Below are positions 1-5,311 of a DNA stretch of 6,068 nucleotides, one piece after another (positions within the stretch are counted from its first letter, which is position 1; every line of letters begins with the position of its first letter). The stretch covers positions 1 to 6,068 of IMG/VR virus record IMGVR_UViG_2713896905_000001; one strand, written 5' to 3'. The notes beneath the pieces were generated by a model. That model did not search any database. It saw only the letters and a list, made by a program, of their open reading frames with translations, and was not told the DNA's origin. Source of the DNA: a virus. Lineage: Duplodnaviria > Heunggongvirae > Uroviricota > Caudoviricetes. A program made the position numbers and the translations under genes.

Positions 1-304
1 GAGCGCCGCGCGTTGTTTCCGGTATATCGACTTTGATGTACGGGTTAATTTGTCTGGCGACAGTGGCAAGGTCTTTATTCAGGAGGGCTTTGCATTCTGC
101 TTCGGTATACGTTTTACCGGGCATAATGTCTTTTCCGGTGTGCCCGTAACATACAGTCCATACACCAACGATATCTTTATATGGTATGTAGCTGACACCT
201 TCCAGACCATCGTCACCACTCGGACCAGTGATTAACACAGATGCTATAGCAATAGCCCCGCCACCAATAGCAGCAGCAACGGCTTTTCGTAATGATGGAG
301 GCAT
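1..304 (-). CDS. R: SAR endolysin (phage 21 R-type lysozyme), 5' part only; the CDS runs off the window start
   Basis: Minus-strand ATG at 304-302 overlaps the S stop codon (TAATG). Hand translation gives [45 protein letters not shown]..., a Gly/Ala-rich signal-anchor-release N-terminus typical of SAR endolysins that pair with pinholins. The frame is open to position 1, which is why it is missing from the ORF track. Confidence 0.85.
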
Positions 305-510
305 TATTCACCTCTCGCAGCCTTACGCTTGTCTTCTCTGATTTTGAAATACAGATTTGTCAGATAGGTGAGAAAGCCCAACACAAGGCTTCCAAGCACT
401 CCAATCGCAGCCCACTGTGACGGACTGACCTGATCAAGCCACTGTAAAAACCAGTAGCCAGCGCTGCCGGCAGATGTGCCGTAAGCAACGCCCGTTGTGA
501 TTTTTTCCAT
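304..510 (-). CDS. S: Class II holin, phage 21 S-type pinholin (68 aa)
   Basis: ATG at 510-508 and TAA at 306-304. The 68-aa product [68 protein letters not shown] has two hydrophobic segments and a charged C-terminal tail, and sits immediately upstream of the SAR endolysin with a 1-nt overlap. I recognise it as S21-like from memory. Confidence 0.85.
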
Positions 511-675
511 CTGATATATGTCTCTGCCAGCAGAAAATGAAAGTGACCGGAAACAAAAAAGCCGCCAGTGTAACCAACTGACGGCAACCGCCTGGAACCG
601 TAATTATGTCATTCAGTCTCTGCTAAAAACGCCTGATAACATTCCTGACTCCCTGCTTCAGGTTATAAATAACAC

Positions 676-800
676 AATATATTGACAACATCCGTCACTG
701 TCTGCCAAAAAATGTACTGTCAGGTATAAGTATCGAATGACATGCAACTACCATTTTTAGCCAGCACCTCTCCGACGAAAGTCAGTGCTGGCTGTTTTTT
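676..800 (+). ncRNA. Candidate small RNA unit A (promoter-like box to intrinsic terminator), antisense to the late operon
   Basis: Perfect TTGACA at 682-687 in an AT-rich context, with a TATAAA at 664-669 just upstream, and no protein-sized ORF. The unit ends in a terminator at 759-800. It is a paralogue of unit B: AATATATTGACA, CTGTCTG, an A-run and TTTTAGCCAGC are shared. Promoter assignment and the 5' end are uncertain. Confidence 0.3.
759..800 (+). terminator. Rho-independent terminator, plus-strand orientation
   Basis: Stem AGCCAGCAC (759-767) pairs with GTGCTGGCT (785-793), 9 bp, around a 17-nt loop that has an internal GAC/GTC mini-stem. It is followed by TTTTTT at 795-800. In the minus orientation the hairpin is followed by AAAAATGG, so it is plus-specific. 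Confidence 0.55.
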
Positions 801-844
801 AAACTTAATAAAGCATCTGTAACTGAAACAATCCGCATATTAAT

Positions 845-950
845 AATATATTGACAGGCATCATTGCTGTCTGTGAAAAATACGTCTCCCAAAACATACA
901 AGGCCTTTTAGCCAGCGTCTGCTTTCTGGTCAGTCGCTGGCTCTTTTTTT
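845..950 (+). ncRNA. Candidate small RNA unit B (paralogue of unit A), antisense to the late operon
   Basis: TTGACA at 851-856 preceded by AT-rich TAATAATATA. It shares AATATATTGACA, CTGTCTG, an A-run and TTTTAGCCAGC with unit A, and ends in a terminator at 910-950 whose T-run abuts the nanS-p stop codon on the opposite strand. No ORF is present. Confidence 0.3.
910..950 (+). terminator. Rho-independent terminator, plus-strand orientation
   Basis: Stem AGCCAGCG (910-917) pairs with CGCTGGCT (935-942) around a 17-nt loop, followed by TTTTTTT at 944-950. Relative to terminator A the stem differs (GCAC/GTGC versus GCG/CGC) while staying complementary. Confidence 0.55.
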
Positions 951-952
951 CA

Positions 953-2776
953 TTATGATGCCAGTGCATTTATCTCCAGCACCAGGCTTTCTATCTCAAC
1001 GCCATATGCGGCATTTTTTGTAACATCCGTCAACGTCAGCGCATTCAGTCCCAGAGTCAGAACGTCTTTTATGGCCTGGAATGATGAACCTGCCACACCA
1101 TTCAGTTTCGGGGTAACCGTTGCACTGCCGGCTGTAAACACCAGCTCCATCGTCTGCCAGTCGTTACTGTAGTTCCCGAATTCCCCCAGCTTCGTGTTTC
1201 CTGACTTCCTGTGGTGCATCAGATTCAGTTTGCCGTCAGTGGTCTGAGTGAAGTACGACATCAGGAACGGATTACCGGTCCCCGTCATCGTCACACCATC
1301 AGGAACGGGAGCGTCTGTGTACAGATAAAGCCCCAGCCCGAACTGATTGTTGGTCAGTGCACCGGTAAGACGGAACTTACAGGTCAGCTTTCCTCCCCGG
1401 CTCAGCAGTAAGGATGCATCCGTCACAGGATGCGACAATGTCCAGCTTTTACCGCTCTCTTTGACAATTCTCAGTGCACCATCCGATAACTGAACGCTGC
1501 CATCGGTAATACTCCACCCCTGAGAAGCAACATCGCCGGCTGAGGCCAGAAGCGATATCGATTTCAGGGATGAATCACCTTCTGATGGAGTGTTCTCCGG
1601 TTTTACACCAGCAATAAATGCCTGTGAGCGCCCTGCCTGCGACAGGATAGCCGATGCCATTCTGTCAGCAATAATCCCGCGTCGTGCCCAGGCACTGAAA
1701 TGGCTCGCACGGTCTGCTGACGTCCAGTTGGCCGACGTCCGGGATGCCGCCCCGTAATAACCGGCTGCCACGATATCCGGGTCTTCCGTCGGCTCATTCG
1801 TTGGCGTGTTTTCACCACTGCCATCTGTCATAAAAGGAACAAAGAAAATATTCTGAGCTTCCTTTCCTTTATAAGCGCCATACACCACCTCATATTGTGT
1901 GGCGTACTTCTGTTTCCAGATGTATGTGGTGTCACCACAAATCCACGGCACTTTTTGAGCGCTTCCGCCATGACACTGCGCCGCCATACCGGCAAGGTCG
2001 CTGCGGAACTGCTGCACCATCGACTGGAATGCTGCAGGCTGCTGGGCATAGCCAGCGTTTGTCATATCGAATTCACCCTGCATCCAGCATACCGCCAGCA
2101 GAACATTTTCAGGATTCTTCTCCAGTGCCGCTTTTGTACGCAGTATCAGATCCTGATATAACGGCTTACCCACTCCCCAGCGCGCAGAGTTCTGGCTGGC
2201 CCCCGTAGCTTCACTGAATGTACCATCCGCCCCTGCTGTAAATGCTGAACCGCCACGGGAGCAGGGAACCAGCAGAATCCCGGCATTTTTTGGGATATAC
2301 GGCAGCAGACGTTTGGCGATATGTAAGCCCTGTCCGACACACCCATACTGACCTTTGCTTAAATCTGCTTCAGGGTGACTGAACACACTCATATCCTGCA
2401 CATCATGCAGACAATGATCTGCCGGGATCACATCGTTAAATACACATGCCTCTCCGCCAGGCGTCACCGTACTGCGACGTGCCAGCTGCTTAATACGCGG
2501 CTCAGGCGCATCATATGAATCAGGAAGAGGAATACCCTCACCATAAGACATGGCATTGGACTGGCCGGCCAGCACGACCACGTAGTACCACTCCGGCTCA
2601 GTTGTGCCACTGACCACCACATCACCTTCTGCTGCAATCGCCTGCATCAGGGTATAAGGAGTTATGGCCACAGGGCTACCAAACGGCTGCCAGCCTTCTT
2701 TCAGTTTTTGCGTGAGCTTGTCCGCCAGATCTGATGGCGATGCTGCCTGCACAATATCGTAACGATTAATCGACAT
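953..2776 (-). CDS. nanS-p: Prophage-encoded sialate (9-O-acetyl-N-acetylneuraminate) O-acetylesterase, NanS-p family (SASA/SGNH hydrolase domain), 607 aa
   Basis: ATG at 2776-2774 with a GGGAG Shine-Dalgarno about 7 nt upstream (minus strand reads GGGAGAAACTCGATG), stop TAA at 955-953. The product starts MSINRYDIVQAASPSDLADKLTQKLKEGWQPFGSPVAI (DUF1737-like N-terminus) and contains VLAGQSNAMSYGEG, the Ser-containing block of SGNH/SASA esterases. Position between Q and the lysis genes matches the known NanS-p moron of lambdoid and Stx prophages. The ORF-track extension to 2887 is rejected (see rejected list). Confidence 0.85.
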   Translation of the reverse strand: MSINRYDIVQAASPSDLADKLTQKLKEGWQPFGSPVAITPYTLMQAIAAEGDVVVSGTTEPEWYYVVVLAGQSNAMSYGEGIPLPDSYDAPEPRIKQLARRSTVTPGGEACVFNDVIPADHCLHDVQDMSVFSHPEADLSKGQYGCVGQGLHIAKRLLPYIPKNAGILLVPCSRGGSAFTAGADGTFSEATGASQNSARWGVGKPLYQDLILRTKAALEKNPENVLLAVCWMQGEFDMTNAGYAQQPAAFQSMVQQFRSDLAGMAAQCHGGSAQKVPWICGDTTYIWKQKYATQYEVVYGAYKGKEAQNIFFVPFMTDGSGENTPTNEPTEDPDIVAAGYYGAASRTSANWTSADRASHFSAWARRGIIADRMASAILSQAGRSQAFIAGVKPENTPSEGDSSLKSISLLASAGDVASQGWSITDGSVQLSDGALRIVKESGKSWTLSHPVTDASLLLSRGGKLTCKFRLTGALTNNQFGLGLYLYTDAPVPDGVTMTGTGNPFLMSYFTQTTDGKLNLMHHRKSGNTKLGEFGNYSNDWQTMELVFTAGSATVTPKLNGVAGSSFQAIKDVLTLGLNALTLTDVTKNAAYGVEIESLVLEINALAS

Positions 2777-2868
2777 CGAGTTTCTCCCATGAACAGGAAT
2801 AGAGTAGAAAAGGCCGGAACAGGAACATAACAAAATCACAGAATTAACATCTGCCAGTGGCAGGTTAC

Positions 2869-2895
2869 AAAAAAAAGGCTGCGCCATGCGCAGCC
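2869..2895 (-). terminator. Rho-independent terminator for minus-strand transcription, about 95 nt upstream of nanS-p
   Basis: Perfect GC-rich inverted repeat GGCTGCG (2877-2883) and CGCAGCC (2889-2895) with loop CCATG. On the minus strand it is followed by eight U residues (plus-strand A-run 2869-2876). On the plus strand the hairpin is followed by AAAAATC, so it is minus-specific. Confidence 0.6.
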
Positions 2896-3496
2896 AAAAA
2901 TCTCTAGGAACACGACAATCGGAATTACAACTGTTATGTATGCATGGCCCGGGTCCGCCCCGGTGAATTCAGCATCAGCACCTGAATCTGCGATTACCCA
3001 ATATTCCTGCCCACAGATTACCTATCAACACAGGTGGATTCACCATGCGGCAGTATTTCTAATAAACAGTAAGCAAAAAAATCAAGCATTATTCAGAATG
3101 GTTCTTTCAACACCGACCACTGCAATGTCACAATCCCACGCACCAGCACACCATCAGCCAGTACCGACATCAGACGTCCGATGAAATCCACTGCACCACC
3201 AGAAACAACATGATGGCAGTCATCACAAAGCGTGCACTTTCCACAGGTACTGCTCCAGCGGTAACTGCAGAGCCTGCGCCAGTGGGTAACCAGCCTACGG
3301 AGGAAGTCACACTGACTATCCCATAAACTTATTCCTGAAAGGCTCTGTGGTTGATAACGCCAGACGTGGCGCAAATACAAAAAAGTCCCGCAAAAGCGAG
3401 TCTGGAAAAATAAGGGTGGTGCGTTGTACTGGATTGAACCAGTAACCGATTGCTTAGAAGACAATTACTATGCCATTGGAGCTAAACCAGCATATT

Positions 3497-3627: not shown

Positions 3628-3657
3628 ATTATGGCTAAATGGATAATTGCATGTCAA
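3628..3657 (-). promoter_or_regulatory. Candidate late promoter PR' (sigma70 -35/-10), overlapping the 3' end of Q; expected site of the Q-utilisation (qut) element
   Basis: Minus strand TTGACA (plus 3657-3652), an 18-nt spacer, then CATAAT (plus 3633-3628) immediately after the Q stop codon. Placement directly downstream of Q matches lambdoid PR' architecture. Confidence 0.45.
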
Positions 3658-4153
3658 GGCCTTTAACAGCAAGATGCTTAACTTTCTCAACACGTTTACG
3701 CATTTTGAAAGCATTTTTCATTGGCTGGTATAAAACAAATAATGACGCTTTCAGGATGTCGTCAATTTCGTTTCTACAGGTTGCCAGTGAAGGTTTTCTC
3801 CATCCCTCGCCACCACGTCCACACATCTTGCGTGGCTTTGCAGTCGCGTGATAGTAGGATGCAATTGCTCGCTTAGATGAACCATGAGCGTAGTAGCTGA
3901 GGAGGATGCCAAAGGCTTTCTTGTCAATGTACATGACGGAATCGACGACCTGAGAAATCAACATTCCATCATCATCATTGCACATTGGCCTTGTCATAAC
4001 TCTTCCCGGCTCTACGCTCTCCATGAACTTAGCTATTACGCTGCTCATACGCTTTTCCAGACGACCTGAATAAACCCATGCGCCCCACAGTTCAAGCCAG
4101 CCATTCAGCCACTCGTGCTGCTCTTTGGTGAGGTTTAGCTCTCTTATACCCAT
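3635..4153 (-). CDS. Q: Late-gene antitermination protein Q (non-lambda, phage 21/82-type Q family), 172 aa
   Basis: ATG at 4153-4151 with GGGAGAAG Shine-Dalgarno upstream, stop TAG at 3637-3635. Lies between the NinI phosphatase and the PR'/tRNA region, the canonical Q position. The product contains WGAW and [11 protein letters not shown]-type motifs that I recall from 21-type Q proteins. The start overlaps the phosphatase gene by 10 nt. Confidence 0.75.
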
Positions 4154-4815: not shown

Positions 4816-5311
4816 GCAGCCTCACTTCTGCTGTTTCGCAGGTCTTTAAGTTTCTGTTGGTACTCTGCCTTGATCGCCCTGCACTCTTCGACAGTCCAGC
4901 GATGGCGGTTATGGTCTGATTCGATTTCCTCTACTGCTTCCTGCCCGATGCGGCTAATCAGTTCGACGCGATACGGAACGAGATTTCCGCTTTTGTGCTG
5001 GTTGCACACCACGCATTGCTTGTGAATATTGCGTTCATCAAACCGGAGTTGAGGTGCCGCAGCAGTTGTCCGGTAATGTCCGGCATCCCACTGAGCAGAC
5101 GTGAGCGTTCCGCACGAGATACATGGTAAGTCNNNNNNNNNNNNNNNNNNCGTTTCTTCTCTGCTGCTTTTTCCGCTTTTTCGCGTTCTTTGCTTCGTCG
5201 TTCGAGTGCTAATTGAGTTCCGTGTTCCGGGCAGCACCACCACTGATTTGAGAATGCCGGGTGAAACCATTCCTTGCATATTTTGCATTTCCTTCGCGCT
5301 GGTTTAGCCAT
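4812..5311 (-). CDS. ninG: NinG (Rap) recombination protein, interrupted by an assembly gap of 18 N; the two halves are in different frames
   Basis: N-terminal part from ATG 5311-5309: [53 protein letters not shown], running into the N-run. C-terminal part from 5132 to stop TGA at 4814-4812: [106 protein letters not shown]. Both parts match lambda NinG as I recall it. The central part is missing in the gap. Confidence 0.8.
5133..5150. other. Assembly or scaffold gap (18 N)
   Basis: A run of n characters in the sequence. Flanking reading frames of ninG do not match across it, as expected for a gap of arbitrary length. Confidence 0.99.

Follow-up and report, generated by a model that had tools for sequence, protein, structure and literature searches.

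What is encoded on the plus strand of the 442-bp gap (511-952) that separates the sialate esterase gene nanS-p from the holin gene? The long ORFs of the window, the whole 6068-bp stretch of DNA that we analyzed, are all on the minus strand, as the initial annotation had it, and the two short plus-strand units that it placed in this gap, referred to here as units A and B, run convergent with the late operon. We conclude that the gap very probably holds, opposite the late operon, a tandem pair of paralogous genes for sRNAs that bind Hfq and act by base pairing, the first (unit A) an allele of PasA and the second (unit B) of the EcOnc51/52 type. Pfam SASA and Phage_holin_2_1 were assigned to nanS-p and the holin gene on contigs identical to the window. 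Two small ORFs in the gap, at 805-969 (-) and 851-958 (+), were dismissed as noncoding because homologues differ by 1- to 2-nt indels in the unit B loop and in the T-runs. A promoter/terminator scan also placed a minus-strand terminator within the gap, at 585-561. Elsewhere in the window, a PasD/STnc100-like RNA lies at 3078-2870; in EPEC, PasD2 is on the other side of the esterase from PasA.

Table 1. Features of the nanS-p/holin gap and its flanks in the window; promoter function, the target site and the unit B 5' end are predictions.
Feature	Position	Strand	Details
Holin gene	304-510	-	From the sequence and ORF list
Promoter block, unit A	676-711	+	AT-rich upstream; -35 TTGACA 682-687; 18-nt spacer; TG 703-704; -10 CAAAAA 706-711
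Unit A RNA, PasA family, ~84 nt	717-800	+	Variable single-stranded 5' half; UUUUUA 754-759; terminator 759-793; U6 795-800
Probable read-through RNA, ~234 nt	717-950	+	Unit A start to unit B terminator, by homology to the E2348/69 minor form
Promoter block, unit B	845-880	+	-35 TTGACA 851-856; 18-nt spacer; TG 872-873; -10 GAAAAA 875-880
Unit B RNA, ~65 nt	886-950	+	5' end inferred, +/-2; CA-rich single-stranded 5' part; UUUUA 906-910; terminator 910-942; U7 944-950
nanS-p (sialate esterase) gene	953-2776	-	From the sequence and ORF list
Putative site in nanS-p mRNA for trans pairing with unit A	976-983	-	~25 nt before the stop codon; by complementarity

Anatomy of the two plus-strand units

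The positions originally given for the two TTGACA hexamers and for both hairpins with their T-runs were all confirmed in the sequence (Table 1). In unit A, AGCCAGCAC (759-767) pairs with GTGCTGGCT (785-793); in unit B, AGCCAGCG (910-917) pairs with CGCTGGCT (935-942). T-runs follow 3' of both hairpins on the plus strand only, and the final A of the upstream UUUUUA (unit A) or UUUUA (unit B) is also the first base of the stem. A U-rich stretch joined to a terminator is the usual Hfq-binding module. A repeat search recovered both hairpins as inverted repeats and, as direct repeats between the units, the 36-nt promoter block (676-711 versus 845-880, 72% identity), TTTTAGCCAGC (11/11) and GCTGGCTnTTTTTT (13/14). 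Both RNAs were predicted to fold more stably than shuffled sequences, unit A at -22.8 kcal/mol (z -2.7) and unit B at -20.6 kcal/mol (z -4.05). A conserved 5' hairpin in unit A was considered and rejected; it is present in the MFE fold of the window allele, yet RNAalifold on 16 homologues supports the terminator alone.

The terminator stems had been described as differing by compensatory substitutions, and this proved correct. The eighth stem pair is A-U in unit A and G-C in unit B, and the same exchange recurs among homologues (GC in 14, AU in 11); pair 7 is CG in 22, UA in 2, and UG in 1. In the terminator alignment, 93% of cells were paired, versus 21 to 54% when the 3' partner was slid. 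Homologous prophage regions, where the initial annotation had proposed a check for covariation, revealed it in the upper stem: the observed score, which has only a few independent substitution events behind it, was reached by 0 of 500 shuffles. The stem substitutions across homologues are compensatory.

The pattern TTGACA-N15-TG occurs twice in the 6068 bp, counting both strands, and both matches are in the gap; 0.40 were expected, and 13 of 200 shuffles contained at least two. The -10 hexamers CAAAAA and GAAAAA are poor (3/6, with no T at -7), and a consensus promoter scan called neither plus-strand promoter, flagging instead overlapping minus-strand CAGACA-17-TATATT sites. Judged by sequence, blocks 676-711 and 845-880 are candidate promoters, and from that of unit A transcription would begin at 717/718, which corresponds to the start mapped for PasA.

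Kinship with PasA and probable match to EcOnc51/52

PasA (pathogenicity-associated sRNA A) was described from prophage PP2 of EPEC E2348/69 (PMC8550237; bioRxiv 10.64898/2026.05.13.724894), where it lies between the SASA esterase gene E2348C_0688 and the holin gene E2348C_0689 in the orientation '> < >' (PMC8550237). In EPEC it gives a northern band, is present in RIL-seq, and is lower in delta-hfq (RNA-seq log2 fold change of -2.8), and the northern probes for PasA and PasC are complementary to plus-strand RNA (PMC8550237). Units A and B have the same layout, being opposite in strand to the flanking nanS-p and holin genes. We searched the window with CM R1, built from 16 PasA/PasC sequences with the window and unit B sequences excluded. 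It matched unit A at 717-801 with 90 bits (E 6e-16) over model positions 1-85 of 85 and unit B at 871-950 with 29.3 bits (E 1e-4); the next matches after these reached at most 15 bits.

The 5' ends of PasA and PasC, from RNA-seq and northern blots, both align at window position 717, 30 nt past TTGACA. It has been proposed that the PasA 5' end may result from cleavage of a longer transcript (bioRxiv 10.64898/2026.05.13.724894), and 717 therefore need not be a primary start. The PasA seed, GCCAGCACCU, is intact in unit A (760-769), where it overlaps the 5' arm of the terminator; the published PasA site reads 3'-UCCACGACCG-5' (PMC8550237). The PasA northern probe matches window positions 766-790 with two mismatches. 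Identity of unit A is 78% to E2348 PasA and 82% to the form in Sakai Sp12 (probably 'PasA-2'), and other variants reach as much as 86%. It shares with PasA the esterase/PasA/class II holin locus, the antisense orientation, the position of the 5' end, the seed, the terminator stem, and PasD beyond the esterase, and the promoter blocks have the same architecture (TTGACA, CTGTCTG, and TG-extended -10) with four substitutions over 36 nt. Unlike PasA, which comes from EPEC, the unit A allele comes from gut-metagenome contigs, and its first ~40 nt differ from both common variants. By homology, unit A is an allele of PasA and probably an Hfq-binding sRNA; expression, Hfq binding, lower abundance in delta-hfq, and RIL-seq partners were all established for published homologues and would extend to the window allele by analogy.

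Unit B is a distant member of the PasA/PasC family, given its CM R1 score of only 29.3 bits, and it is 91 to 92% identical to unit B of the Sakai prophages Sp12 and Sp4. Its seed equivalent, GCCAGCGUCU (911-920), has two substitutions relative to the PasA seed and matches the PasC stem variant; with these two bases changed, its targets are probably different. EcOnc51 (prophage Sp12) and EcOnc52 (prophage Sp4) are Hfq-CRAC peaks of EHEC Sakai; they were predicted only, on the strength of CRAC and a terminator and without a northern blot (PMC4104026), and were later cited as 'homologues of PasA' (PMC8550237). At its published coordinates, EcOnc52 falls on Sp4 unit B, which has the sole terminator in the area, and its peak starts 29 nt downstream of the unit B TTGACA. 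EcOnc51 falls on Sp12 unit B, which is identical to Sp4 unit B, only with an offset of about +138 bp; without it, the peak falls on the unit A terminator. The offset between NC_002695.1 and NC_002695.2, on which the EcOnc51/52 assignment depends, was deduced from Rfam matches for AsxR, EcOnc03, and AgvB, and because these matches show the genome-version shift we dropped the reading of EcOnc51 as the Sp12 unit A terminator, where the published coordinates as such would put it. On this assignment, the edges of the peaks would suit a promoter-to-terminator unit, from 29 nt after TTGACA to 11 nt beyond the U-run.

Unit B also corresponds to an entity of the EPEC RIL-seq data, pasA.E2348C_0688.IGR, whose RNA2 ends lie at 743267-743294 and which has 12,788 other fragments as RNA2; the region is always the second chimera partner and has five partners, escD among them (PMC8550237). 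On its similarity, unit B is a diverged paralogue, probably of the EcOnc51/52 type, with a predicted 5' end. The initial annotation's two related plus-strand sRNA units are thus borne out by the repeats, by folds beyond shuffles, and by homologue RNAs on the same strand (PMC8550237; PMC4104026), and they belong to a known, published family of Hfq-binding prophage sRNAs (PasA/PasC and EcOnc51/52).

We were concerned that the locus might be a single gene, in which the unit A promoter alone works and unit B is a decayed duplicate that provides a back-up terminator and a 3' extension of PasA. Pearl Mizrahi et al. reported a 'minor' PasA form of 236 nt (743499-743264) that ends at the unit B terminator, and they listed the downstream IGR entity together with PasA (PMC8550237); position 743264 aligns with window position ~951. 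Neither a northern blot nor a mapped TSS has been published for a distinct unit B RNA of ~65 nt, and the unit B -10 is weak. However, virtually every copy of unit B retains TTGACA-N15-TG, whereas the 5' regions of the RNAs drift, and PasC, with its unit-B-type stem, is a northern-validated sRNA. The Sakai Sp4 copy is a natural separation of the two units: IS629 ends 25 nt before the unit B -35, unit A is absent on that side, and the unit B cut off in this way still gives its Hfq-CRAC peak 29 nt after TTGACA. We consider a single gene unlikely.

Predicted targets and alternatives to the proposed trans-acting role

In the mechanism we favor, each module would be self-contained, with a sigma-70 promoter followed by a short RNA that includes a U-rich stretch and a U-tailed intrinsic terminator. 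The repressed prophage would produce the RNAs, which would act in trans on mRNAs of both the host and the prophage. Hairpin A would terminate incompletely, giving the read-through form of ~234 nt. The seed GCCAGCACCU on the 5' arm of the terminator would pair with CUG(A/G)UGCUGG(C/A) motifs, one of them in nanS-p, whose mRNA reads GGUGCUGG at the site in Table 1, complementary to the seed core CCAGCACC; unit B, with GCCAGCGUCU, would probably have other targets than unit A. In EPEC, E2348C_0688 and E2348C_1246 both have CUG(A/G)UGCUGGA at the 3' end, where it is listed as a PasA RIL-seq target site (table S7 of PMC8550237), and most PasA partners (36 of 41) are CDS or 5'UTR (PMC8550237). In RIL-seq, PasA has bfp genes among its partners, and the unit B region has the LEE gene escD (PMC8550237). 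The PasA family thereby ties prophages to host and virulence regulation, and alleles with a different 5' half, as in the window, widen the possible target range.

Both RNAs are, by construction, fully complementary to the late mRNA in the gap, and they, or transcription across them, could instead act mainly in cis, antisense to the late transcript at the nanS-p/holin junction, and modulate its processing, read-through into the lysis genes, or the timing of lysis after induction. The placement of the units directly ahead of the lysis cassette is conserved, the 3' ends of the two nanS-p genes are among the RIL-seq partners of PasA, and a late-sense IGR RNA from the nanS-p/holin gap appears in RIL-seq (PMC8550237). 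We nevertheless consider a mainly cis role quite unlikely as the explanation of the locus: PasA partners are mostly unlinked core and virulence mRNAs (PMC8550237), and ~66 of the prophage loci sampled have the same nanS-p and holin genes but no unit, indicating that the units are not needed for lysis. Cis action is compatible with a trans role.

The initial annotation had also pointed to CA-rich motifs in unit A of a kind that pairs with seed regions of sRNAs such as GcvB, and to prophage anti-sRNAs as possible, unverified counterparts. Its sRNA units, each with its own TTGACA and terminator, stand; the anti-sRNA role, in which the units would be of the AgvB/AsxR type and unit A would mimic GcvB targets, does not, and we regard it as very improbable. 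ACAACAUC (685-692) is perfectly complementary to GAUGUUGU of GcvB R1, segment 660-716 forms a more stable duplex with GcvB than its shuffles (z -2.7), and AgvB-type sponges occur in the same prophage late regions. However, the motifs (671-677 and 685-693) lie upstream of and across the -35, 24 to 46 nt before 717, the position homologous to the 5' ends mapped for PasA and PasC. As a positive control, we paired the 5' 20 nt of AgvB with GcvB by RNAduplex, which gave -19.2 kcal/mol (z -3.3) with 0 of 200 shuffles as good. The 5' part of unit A gave -20.9 kcal/mol, with 0.43 of shuffles as good, and that of unit B -11.2 kcal/mol, with 0.79 as good. Full-length RNAs formed long, unrealistic duplexes with GcvB, so that the informative comparisons are those of the short 5' segments with the AgvB control.

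Comparison with the sponges themselves pointed in the same direction. The Rfam models for AgvB (RF02702) and AsxR (RF02703), which score the Sakai genes at 96.5, 56.6, and 88.1 bits, found no match in the window (E up to 1) or in 560-1000 (E up to 10). AgvB and AsxR resemble units A and B in several ways: they are short, bind Hfq, come from the late regions of lambdoid prophages and run toward the late operon, and their terminator is conserved where the 5' part varies. They differ in length (51-60 nt), in sponging GcvB or FnrS, and in having no sequence or CM similarity to the units. They also occupy another site: in Sakai, AgvB and AsxR abut the STnc100 3' end, tail-to-tail, between moron/STnc100 and nanS-p, and units A and B lie beyond nanS-p. 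The equivalent site in the window, 2840-2900 (+), has a PasD-like terminator only. The partners of PasA are those of a canonical sRNA, being largely CDS or 5'UTR, and no GcvB-PasA or GcvB-PasC chimera is among the sRNA-sRNA pairs that open the activating-condition EPEC RIL-seq sheet (PMC8550237).

Least credible is a minus-strand reading, in which the hairpins stabilize or terminate nanS-p mRNA and the blocks are CAGACA-17-TATATT promoters for the holin region: the promoter scan does score sites at 704-676 and 873-845 with 9/12 each, and the hairpins fold equally well as minus-strand RNA, but there they have A-runs before and AAAA after them and therefore are not intrinsic terminators, the minus-strand -10 weakens to GATATT (8/12) in most unit A copies while TTGACA is still perfect, the PasA and PasC northern probes detect plus-strand RNA (PMC8550237), a constitutive holin-directed promoter would be harmful, and the terminator at 585-561 intervenes.

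The tandem pair and a possible origin of PasC

Returning to two tandem sRNA genes, we asked how the units are distributed among IMG/VR prophages, sampling loci by a nanS-p anchor that is independent of the promoter. The gap had no unit in 66 loci, one unit in ~33, and two units 167 to 169 bp apart in ~68, and promoter count equaled terminator count in nearly all sampled gaps. Three of the unit-bearing IGRs did not match the promoter block (two have one CTGTCTG substitution and the third is IS-truncated); every other one did. A 2026 survey gave 22 kb as the minimum distance between pasA copies and reported no tandem duplicates among them (bioRxiv 10.64898/2026.05.13.724894); unit B was therefore apparently missed there, despite its presence in about half of the sampled unit-bearing loci. 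A search of genome contigs with a 16-base degenerate promoter pattern returned chance matches only, in unrelated phyla.

PasC, a northern-validated sRNA of EPEC E2348/69 prophage PP5 (PMC8550237), combines features of both units. In its one-unit gap, the promoter and 5' half of unit A continue into a stem of the unit B type whose loop is different, and PasC shares with unit B the stem variant AGCCAGCG/CGCUGGCU and a flank that abuts the nanS-p stop codon; unit B, unlike PasC, has its own 5' part, which is shorter and different. PasC looks like a deletion product, or one-unit recombinant, of a tandem pair such as that at locus L188. We lean, with a little more belief than doubt, toward a general form of this idea: the PasA locus would be a tandem paralogous sRNA pair with unit B independently transcribed and carrying its own seed, the family would diversify through duplication and unequal crossing-over between TTTTAGCCAGC...CTGGCT blocks, and PasC and single units with the 'GTAC-stem' would be products of collapse. 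The tandem paralogue pair and PasC as its one-unit recombinant may be a new point.

This bears on how the family is counted. Rfam 15 has no PasA/PasC model, and it gave no match in the window or in the reference E2348/69 loci; abundant Hfq-bound PasA and PasC RNAs therefore stay unannotated in genomes. Sequences matching unit A occur at 2295 places in 677 E. coli genomes, and among the 40 matches listed none has an annotated feature over it. Unit B figures in the literature as a 'homologue' of PasA or as the tail of its longer form; if it is a separate paralogue, estimates of copy number and of the evolution of the family change.

Adjacent paralogues with their own promoters and terminators, conserved ends, and diverged seeds or 5' parts are also found in OmrA/OmrB and PrrF1/PrrF2, and a read-through product over both genes is a further shared feature. 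OmrA/OmrB and PrrF1/PrrF2 belong to the core genome and have known regulators, whereas units A and B are carried by mobile prophages and have repeatedly collapsed to one unit or none. OmrA/OmrB and PrrF1/PrrF2 are named as tandem sRNA pairs in the 2026 survey (bioRxiv 10.64898/2026.05.13.724894).

Two plus-strand units between nanS-p and the holin gene

The gap between the minus-strand nanS-p (a sialate esterase gene) and holin genes carries two plus-strand units, unit A (RNA 717-800) and unit B (RNA ~886-950), and a direct check of the sequence found every coordinate given for them in the initial annotation to be correct. A repeat search recovered the hairpins of both units, a 36-nt promoter block common to the two (676-711 and 845-880, 72% identical), and two further common segments, TTTTAGCCAGC (11/11) and GCTGGCTnTTTTTT (13/14). 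The unit RNAs fold better than shuffles (z -2.7 for unit A and -4.05 for unit B), and T-runs lie 3' of the hairpins on the plus strand only, the minus-strand flanks being A-runs.

Both promoters consist of TTGACA, 15 nt, TG, one base, and then CAAAAA or GAAAAA, which we interpret as a perfect -35 separated by an 18-nt spacer from a weak -10 with a TG extension. The window's only two TTGACA-N15-TG matches are those of units A and B (0.40 expected), and the spacing predicts transcription starts at 717/718 and at 886/887, consistent with the 5' ends that were mapped or inferred. As a caveat to the plus-strand reading, a generic promoter scan called neither of these promoters and placed minus-strand CAGACA-17-TATATT sites at 704-676 and 873-845, overlapping both blocks. 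For the promoter test we sampled prophage loci independently, using the 3' end of nanS-p as the anchor. The strict block was present in all unit-bearing loci but three (two carry one substitution, and an IS truncates the third), and its retention across the sample argues for plus-strand rather than minus-strand promoters. TTGACA is invariant; the -10 of the minus-strand sites, by our count, is weakened to GATATT in most copies of unit A.

An Rfam 15 search of the gap returned no match, even at E up to 10. The sRNA PasA was described in EPEC E2348/69 (Pearl Mizrahi et al. 2021, PMC8550237, table S6), on the strand opposite to its neighbors E2348C_0688 and E2348C_0689 (PMC8550237), which RefSeq annotates as a SASA esterase and a class II holin. 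It has a major form of 85 nt (743499-743415) and a minor form of 236 nt reaching 743264, is less abundant in delta-hfq by RNA-seq in the activating condition (log2 fold change -2.8), and holds rank 12 by number of RIL-seq interactions (PMC8550237). Alignment to the two E2348/69 loci placed the 5' ends of both PasA and the related PasC at window 717; the 3' end of PasA maps to 800 for the major form and to ~951, the unit B terminator, for the minor one. Window 766-790 is complementary to the PasA northern probe with two mismatches, and the PasC northern probe resembles 895-918. After gathering homologues from IMG/VR, we built a covariance model from 16 PasA/PasC-type sequences, leaving out the window and unit B sequences; it matched 717-801 over its full length (90 bits, E 6e-16) and unit B at 871-950 (29.3 bits, E 1e-4), with no other window match above 15 bits. 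On sequence comparison, the match to 717-801 identifies unit A as a PasA allele. It shares 78% identity with E2348/69 PasA and as much as 86% with other variants; the differences from PasA lie within the first 40 nt, and the seed GCCAGCACCU and terminator are unchanged.

Unit B and the evolution of the gap

We regard unit B as a diverged paralogue of the PasA family. Pearl Mizrahi et al. mention PasA "homologues in EHEC (EcOnc51/EcOnc52)" (PMC8550237); in Sakai prophages Sp12 and Sp4 these are Hfq-CRAC peaks, each with a terminator prediction (Tree et al. 2014, PMC4104026), and their published coordinates belong to an older genome version, not NC_002695.2. In NC_002695.2 the Rfam matches for AsxR, EcOnc03, and AgvB exceed the published peak coordinates by ~138 bp. 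With the shift inferred from these three, EcOnc51 would fall on the Sp12 unit B, and EcOnc52, at 1.18 Mb, falls without a shift on the Sp4 unit B, the sole terminator in the area. From 1.27 Mb onward the Tree et al. 2014 values run ~138 bp below NC_002695.2, an offset relevant to any re-use of their table.

The Sp12 and Sp4 copies of unit B are identical in sequence, and the peaks (77 and 78 nt) have near-equal read areas and the same edges, from 29 nt after TTGACA to 11 nt past the U-run, as expected if reads from a single sequence had been multi-mapped. The Sp4 unit B has no unit A upstream of it, and an IS629 end sits 25 nt before its -35, an arrangement that favors transcription of unit B from its own promoter. 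In EPEC RIL-seq, the PasA-esterase region has an entry that the authors merged with PasA, pasA.E2348C_0688.IGR; its RNA2 ends fall at 743267-743294, it has 12,788 other fragments as RNA2, and it is second in all its chimeras, with five partners including the LEE gene escD (PMC8550237). We conclude that the two-unit feature is real and already described, and that its best-supported reading is two self-contained, Hfq-binding, trans-acting prophage sRNA genes, the first terminator being partly read through; viewing the PasA locus as a tandem of paralogues is the sole modest addition to the known picture.

Compensatory differences between the terminator stems, also claimed initially, were borne out by comparison among homologues. 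Across 25 distinct units, 93% of terminator-helix cells are paired, against 21-54% when slid. Pair 8 is GC in 14 and AU in 11, pair 7 is CG in 22, UA in 2, and UG in 1, and 0/500 shuffles reach the observed covariation score; the swaps at these pairs represent few independent events, and the terminator is the only consensus structure supported among the homologues.

The gaps of the sampled loci hold no unit (66), one unit, or a pair of units spaced 167-169 bp apart. Of the loci with sufficient flanking sequence, 53 carry a PasA-type unit plus unit B, 21 a single PasC-type unit, 6 a single unit with a UAC/GUA stem, and 4 unit B alone; one (L188) has a tandem pair whose unit B carries the PasC loop. 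From these arrangements, L188 included, PasC can be read as a fusion of the promoter and 5' half of unit A to a unit-B-type terminator, which would be best explained by unequal recombination between the common TTTTAGCCAGC blocks. PasA and PasC have been assigned a common ancestor, and pasA copies are reported never to lie <22 kb apart and not to be tandem duplicates (Zhu, Shabalina & Storz 2026, bioRxiv 10.64898/2026.05.13.724894); the BLAST settings of that preprint would not have detected unit B. IS629/IS3-family elements have inserted into the gap repeatedly (e.g., L151, L198, and Sakai Sp4, L004 1131), either truncating unit A or splitting it from unit B, and the preprint's terminator-less 'PasA-3' is probably such a truncated unit A.

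Putative pairing partners and late-strand signals

The PasA seed would pair with CUG(A/G)UGCUGG(C/A) motifs. The 3' end of the nanS-p mRNA contains GGUGCUGG (976-983, minus strand), a perfect 8-nt complement to the seed core; both E2348/69 nanS-p genes are among the PasA RIL-seq partners, and for E2348C_0688 and E2348C_1246 the corresponding sites appear among the PasA RIL-seq target motifs (PMC8550237). The unit B seed differs from that of PasA by two bases. In addition to acting in trans, the units may exert a cis-antisense effect on the late transcript.

The initial suggestion that unit A might pair with GcvB through CA-rich motifs did not hold. The motifs (671-677 and 685-693) precede or overlap the -35 box and thus fall outside the major RNA, and the predicted pairing is at shuffle level: the transcribed 5' part of unit A gave -20.9 (reached by 43% of shuffles) and that of unit B -11.2 (79%), with the AgvB 5' 20 nt against GcvB R1 as positive control (-19.2 kcal/mol, z -3.3). 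The sRNA-sRNA pairs opening the activating-condition RIL-seq sheet include gcvB-sroC and pasC-rne5, and among them is no GcvB-PasA or GcvB-PasC pair (PMC8550237). There is a small opening for a sponge role through a longer precursor starting upstream of 670, as the PasA 5' end may be processed (bioRxiv 10.64898/2026.05.13.724894). The anti-sRNAs AgvB and AsxR (RF02702 and RF02703) have no similarity to units A and B and occupy another site, upstream of nanS-p and directly next to STnc100. In Sakai Sp10, Sp5, and Sp9 (L005 928-1182, L328 223-482, and L330 222-491) one or the other stands tail-to-tail with the STnc100 3' end, 0-1 nt apart on opposite strands.

Entries of the EPEC RIL-seq tables list a late-sense gap RNA, pasA.E2348C_0689.IGR, as chimeric with PasB, its reads beginning at the equivalent of window 722-704 on the minus strand (PMC8550237). 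There may be a further late-strand RNA between unit A and the holin gene, possibly ending at the 585-561 terminator. This hairpin, which on the late-gene strand precedes the holin start by ~40 nt, is kept in both E2348/69 loci and has an analogue in the short unit-less gap type; it probably keeps non-antiterminated transcription, such as that of nanS-p in a lysogen, from entering the lysis genes.

Genomic setting and spread

The window represents the late region of a lambdoid prophage, its genes running on the minus strand.

Features of the late region and of the gap (window coordinates)
Feature	Position	Strand	Remarks
Q antiterminator	3635-4153	-	late region
tRNA-Asn (GUU), intact, n=1	3571-3497	-	late region
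PasD/STnc100-like RNA	3078-2870	-	Rfam and comparison with PasD2
nanS-p, SASA-family sialate esterase	953-2776	-	
Intergenic gap, 442 bp	511-952		
Intrinsic-terminator-like hairpin, GCCGUCAGUUGGUUACACUGGCGGC then UUUUUUGUUU	585-552	-	fold z -2.9
Class II holin	304-510	-	lysozyme gene next

The PasD/STnc100-like RNA, just upstream of nanS-p and in late-operon sense, matches Rfam STnc100 at 40 bits (gathering score 47); PasD2, an E2348/69 prophage sRNA, has the same CCGCAUGGUGAAUCC 5' box and GGCUGCGCAUGGCGCAGCC+U8 terminator. The window RNA seems to fall between PasD and STnc100, which fits their reported relatedness (bioRxiv 10.64898/2026.05.13.724894). Adjoining the tRNA-Asn gene, 3491-3420 on the minus strand resembles a degenerate tRNA whose acceptor stem is broken; it scores slightly below the Rfam threshold (28.6 bits) and has no ARAGORN call.

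Among deposited phages, JLK-2012 comes closest (89% identity across 78% of the window), and an identical esterase is encoded, with gene order unchanged, on contigs of human gut metagenomes and in one MAG. The gap is matched in 677 of 5426 complete E. coli genomes (86-93% identity, median 3 places per genome); among the listed matches that span unit A, 0/40 have an annotated feature. At the unit B end, a few partial matches on plasmids fall under a 'hypothetical protein' annotation. A run of 18 N at 5133-5150, within the NinG-like ORF region, is a scaffold gap, so the window comes from a scaffolded assembly.
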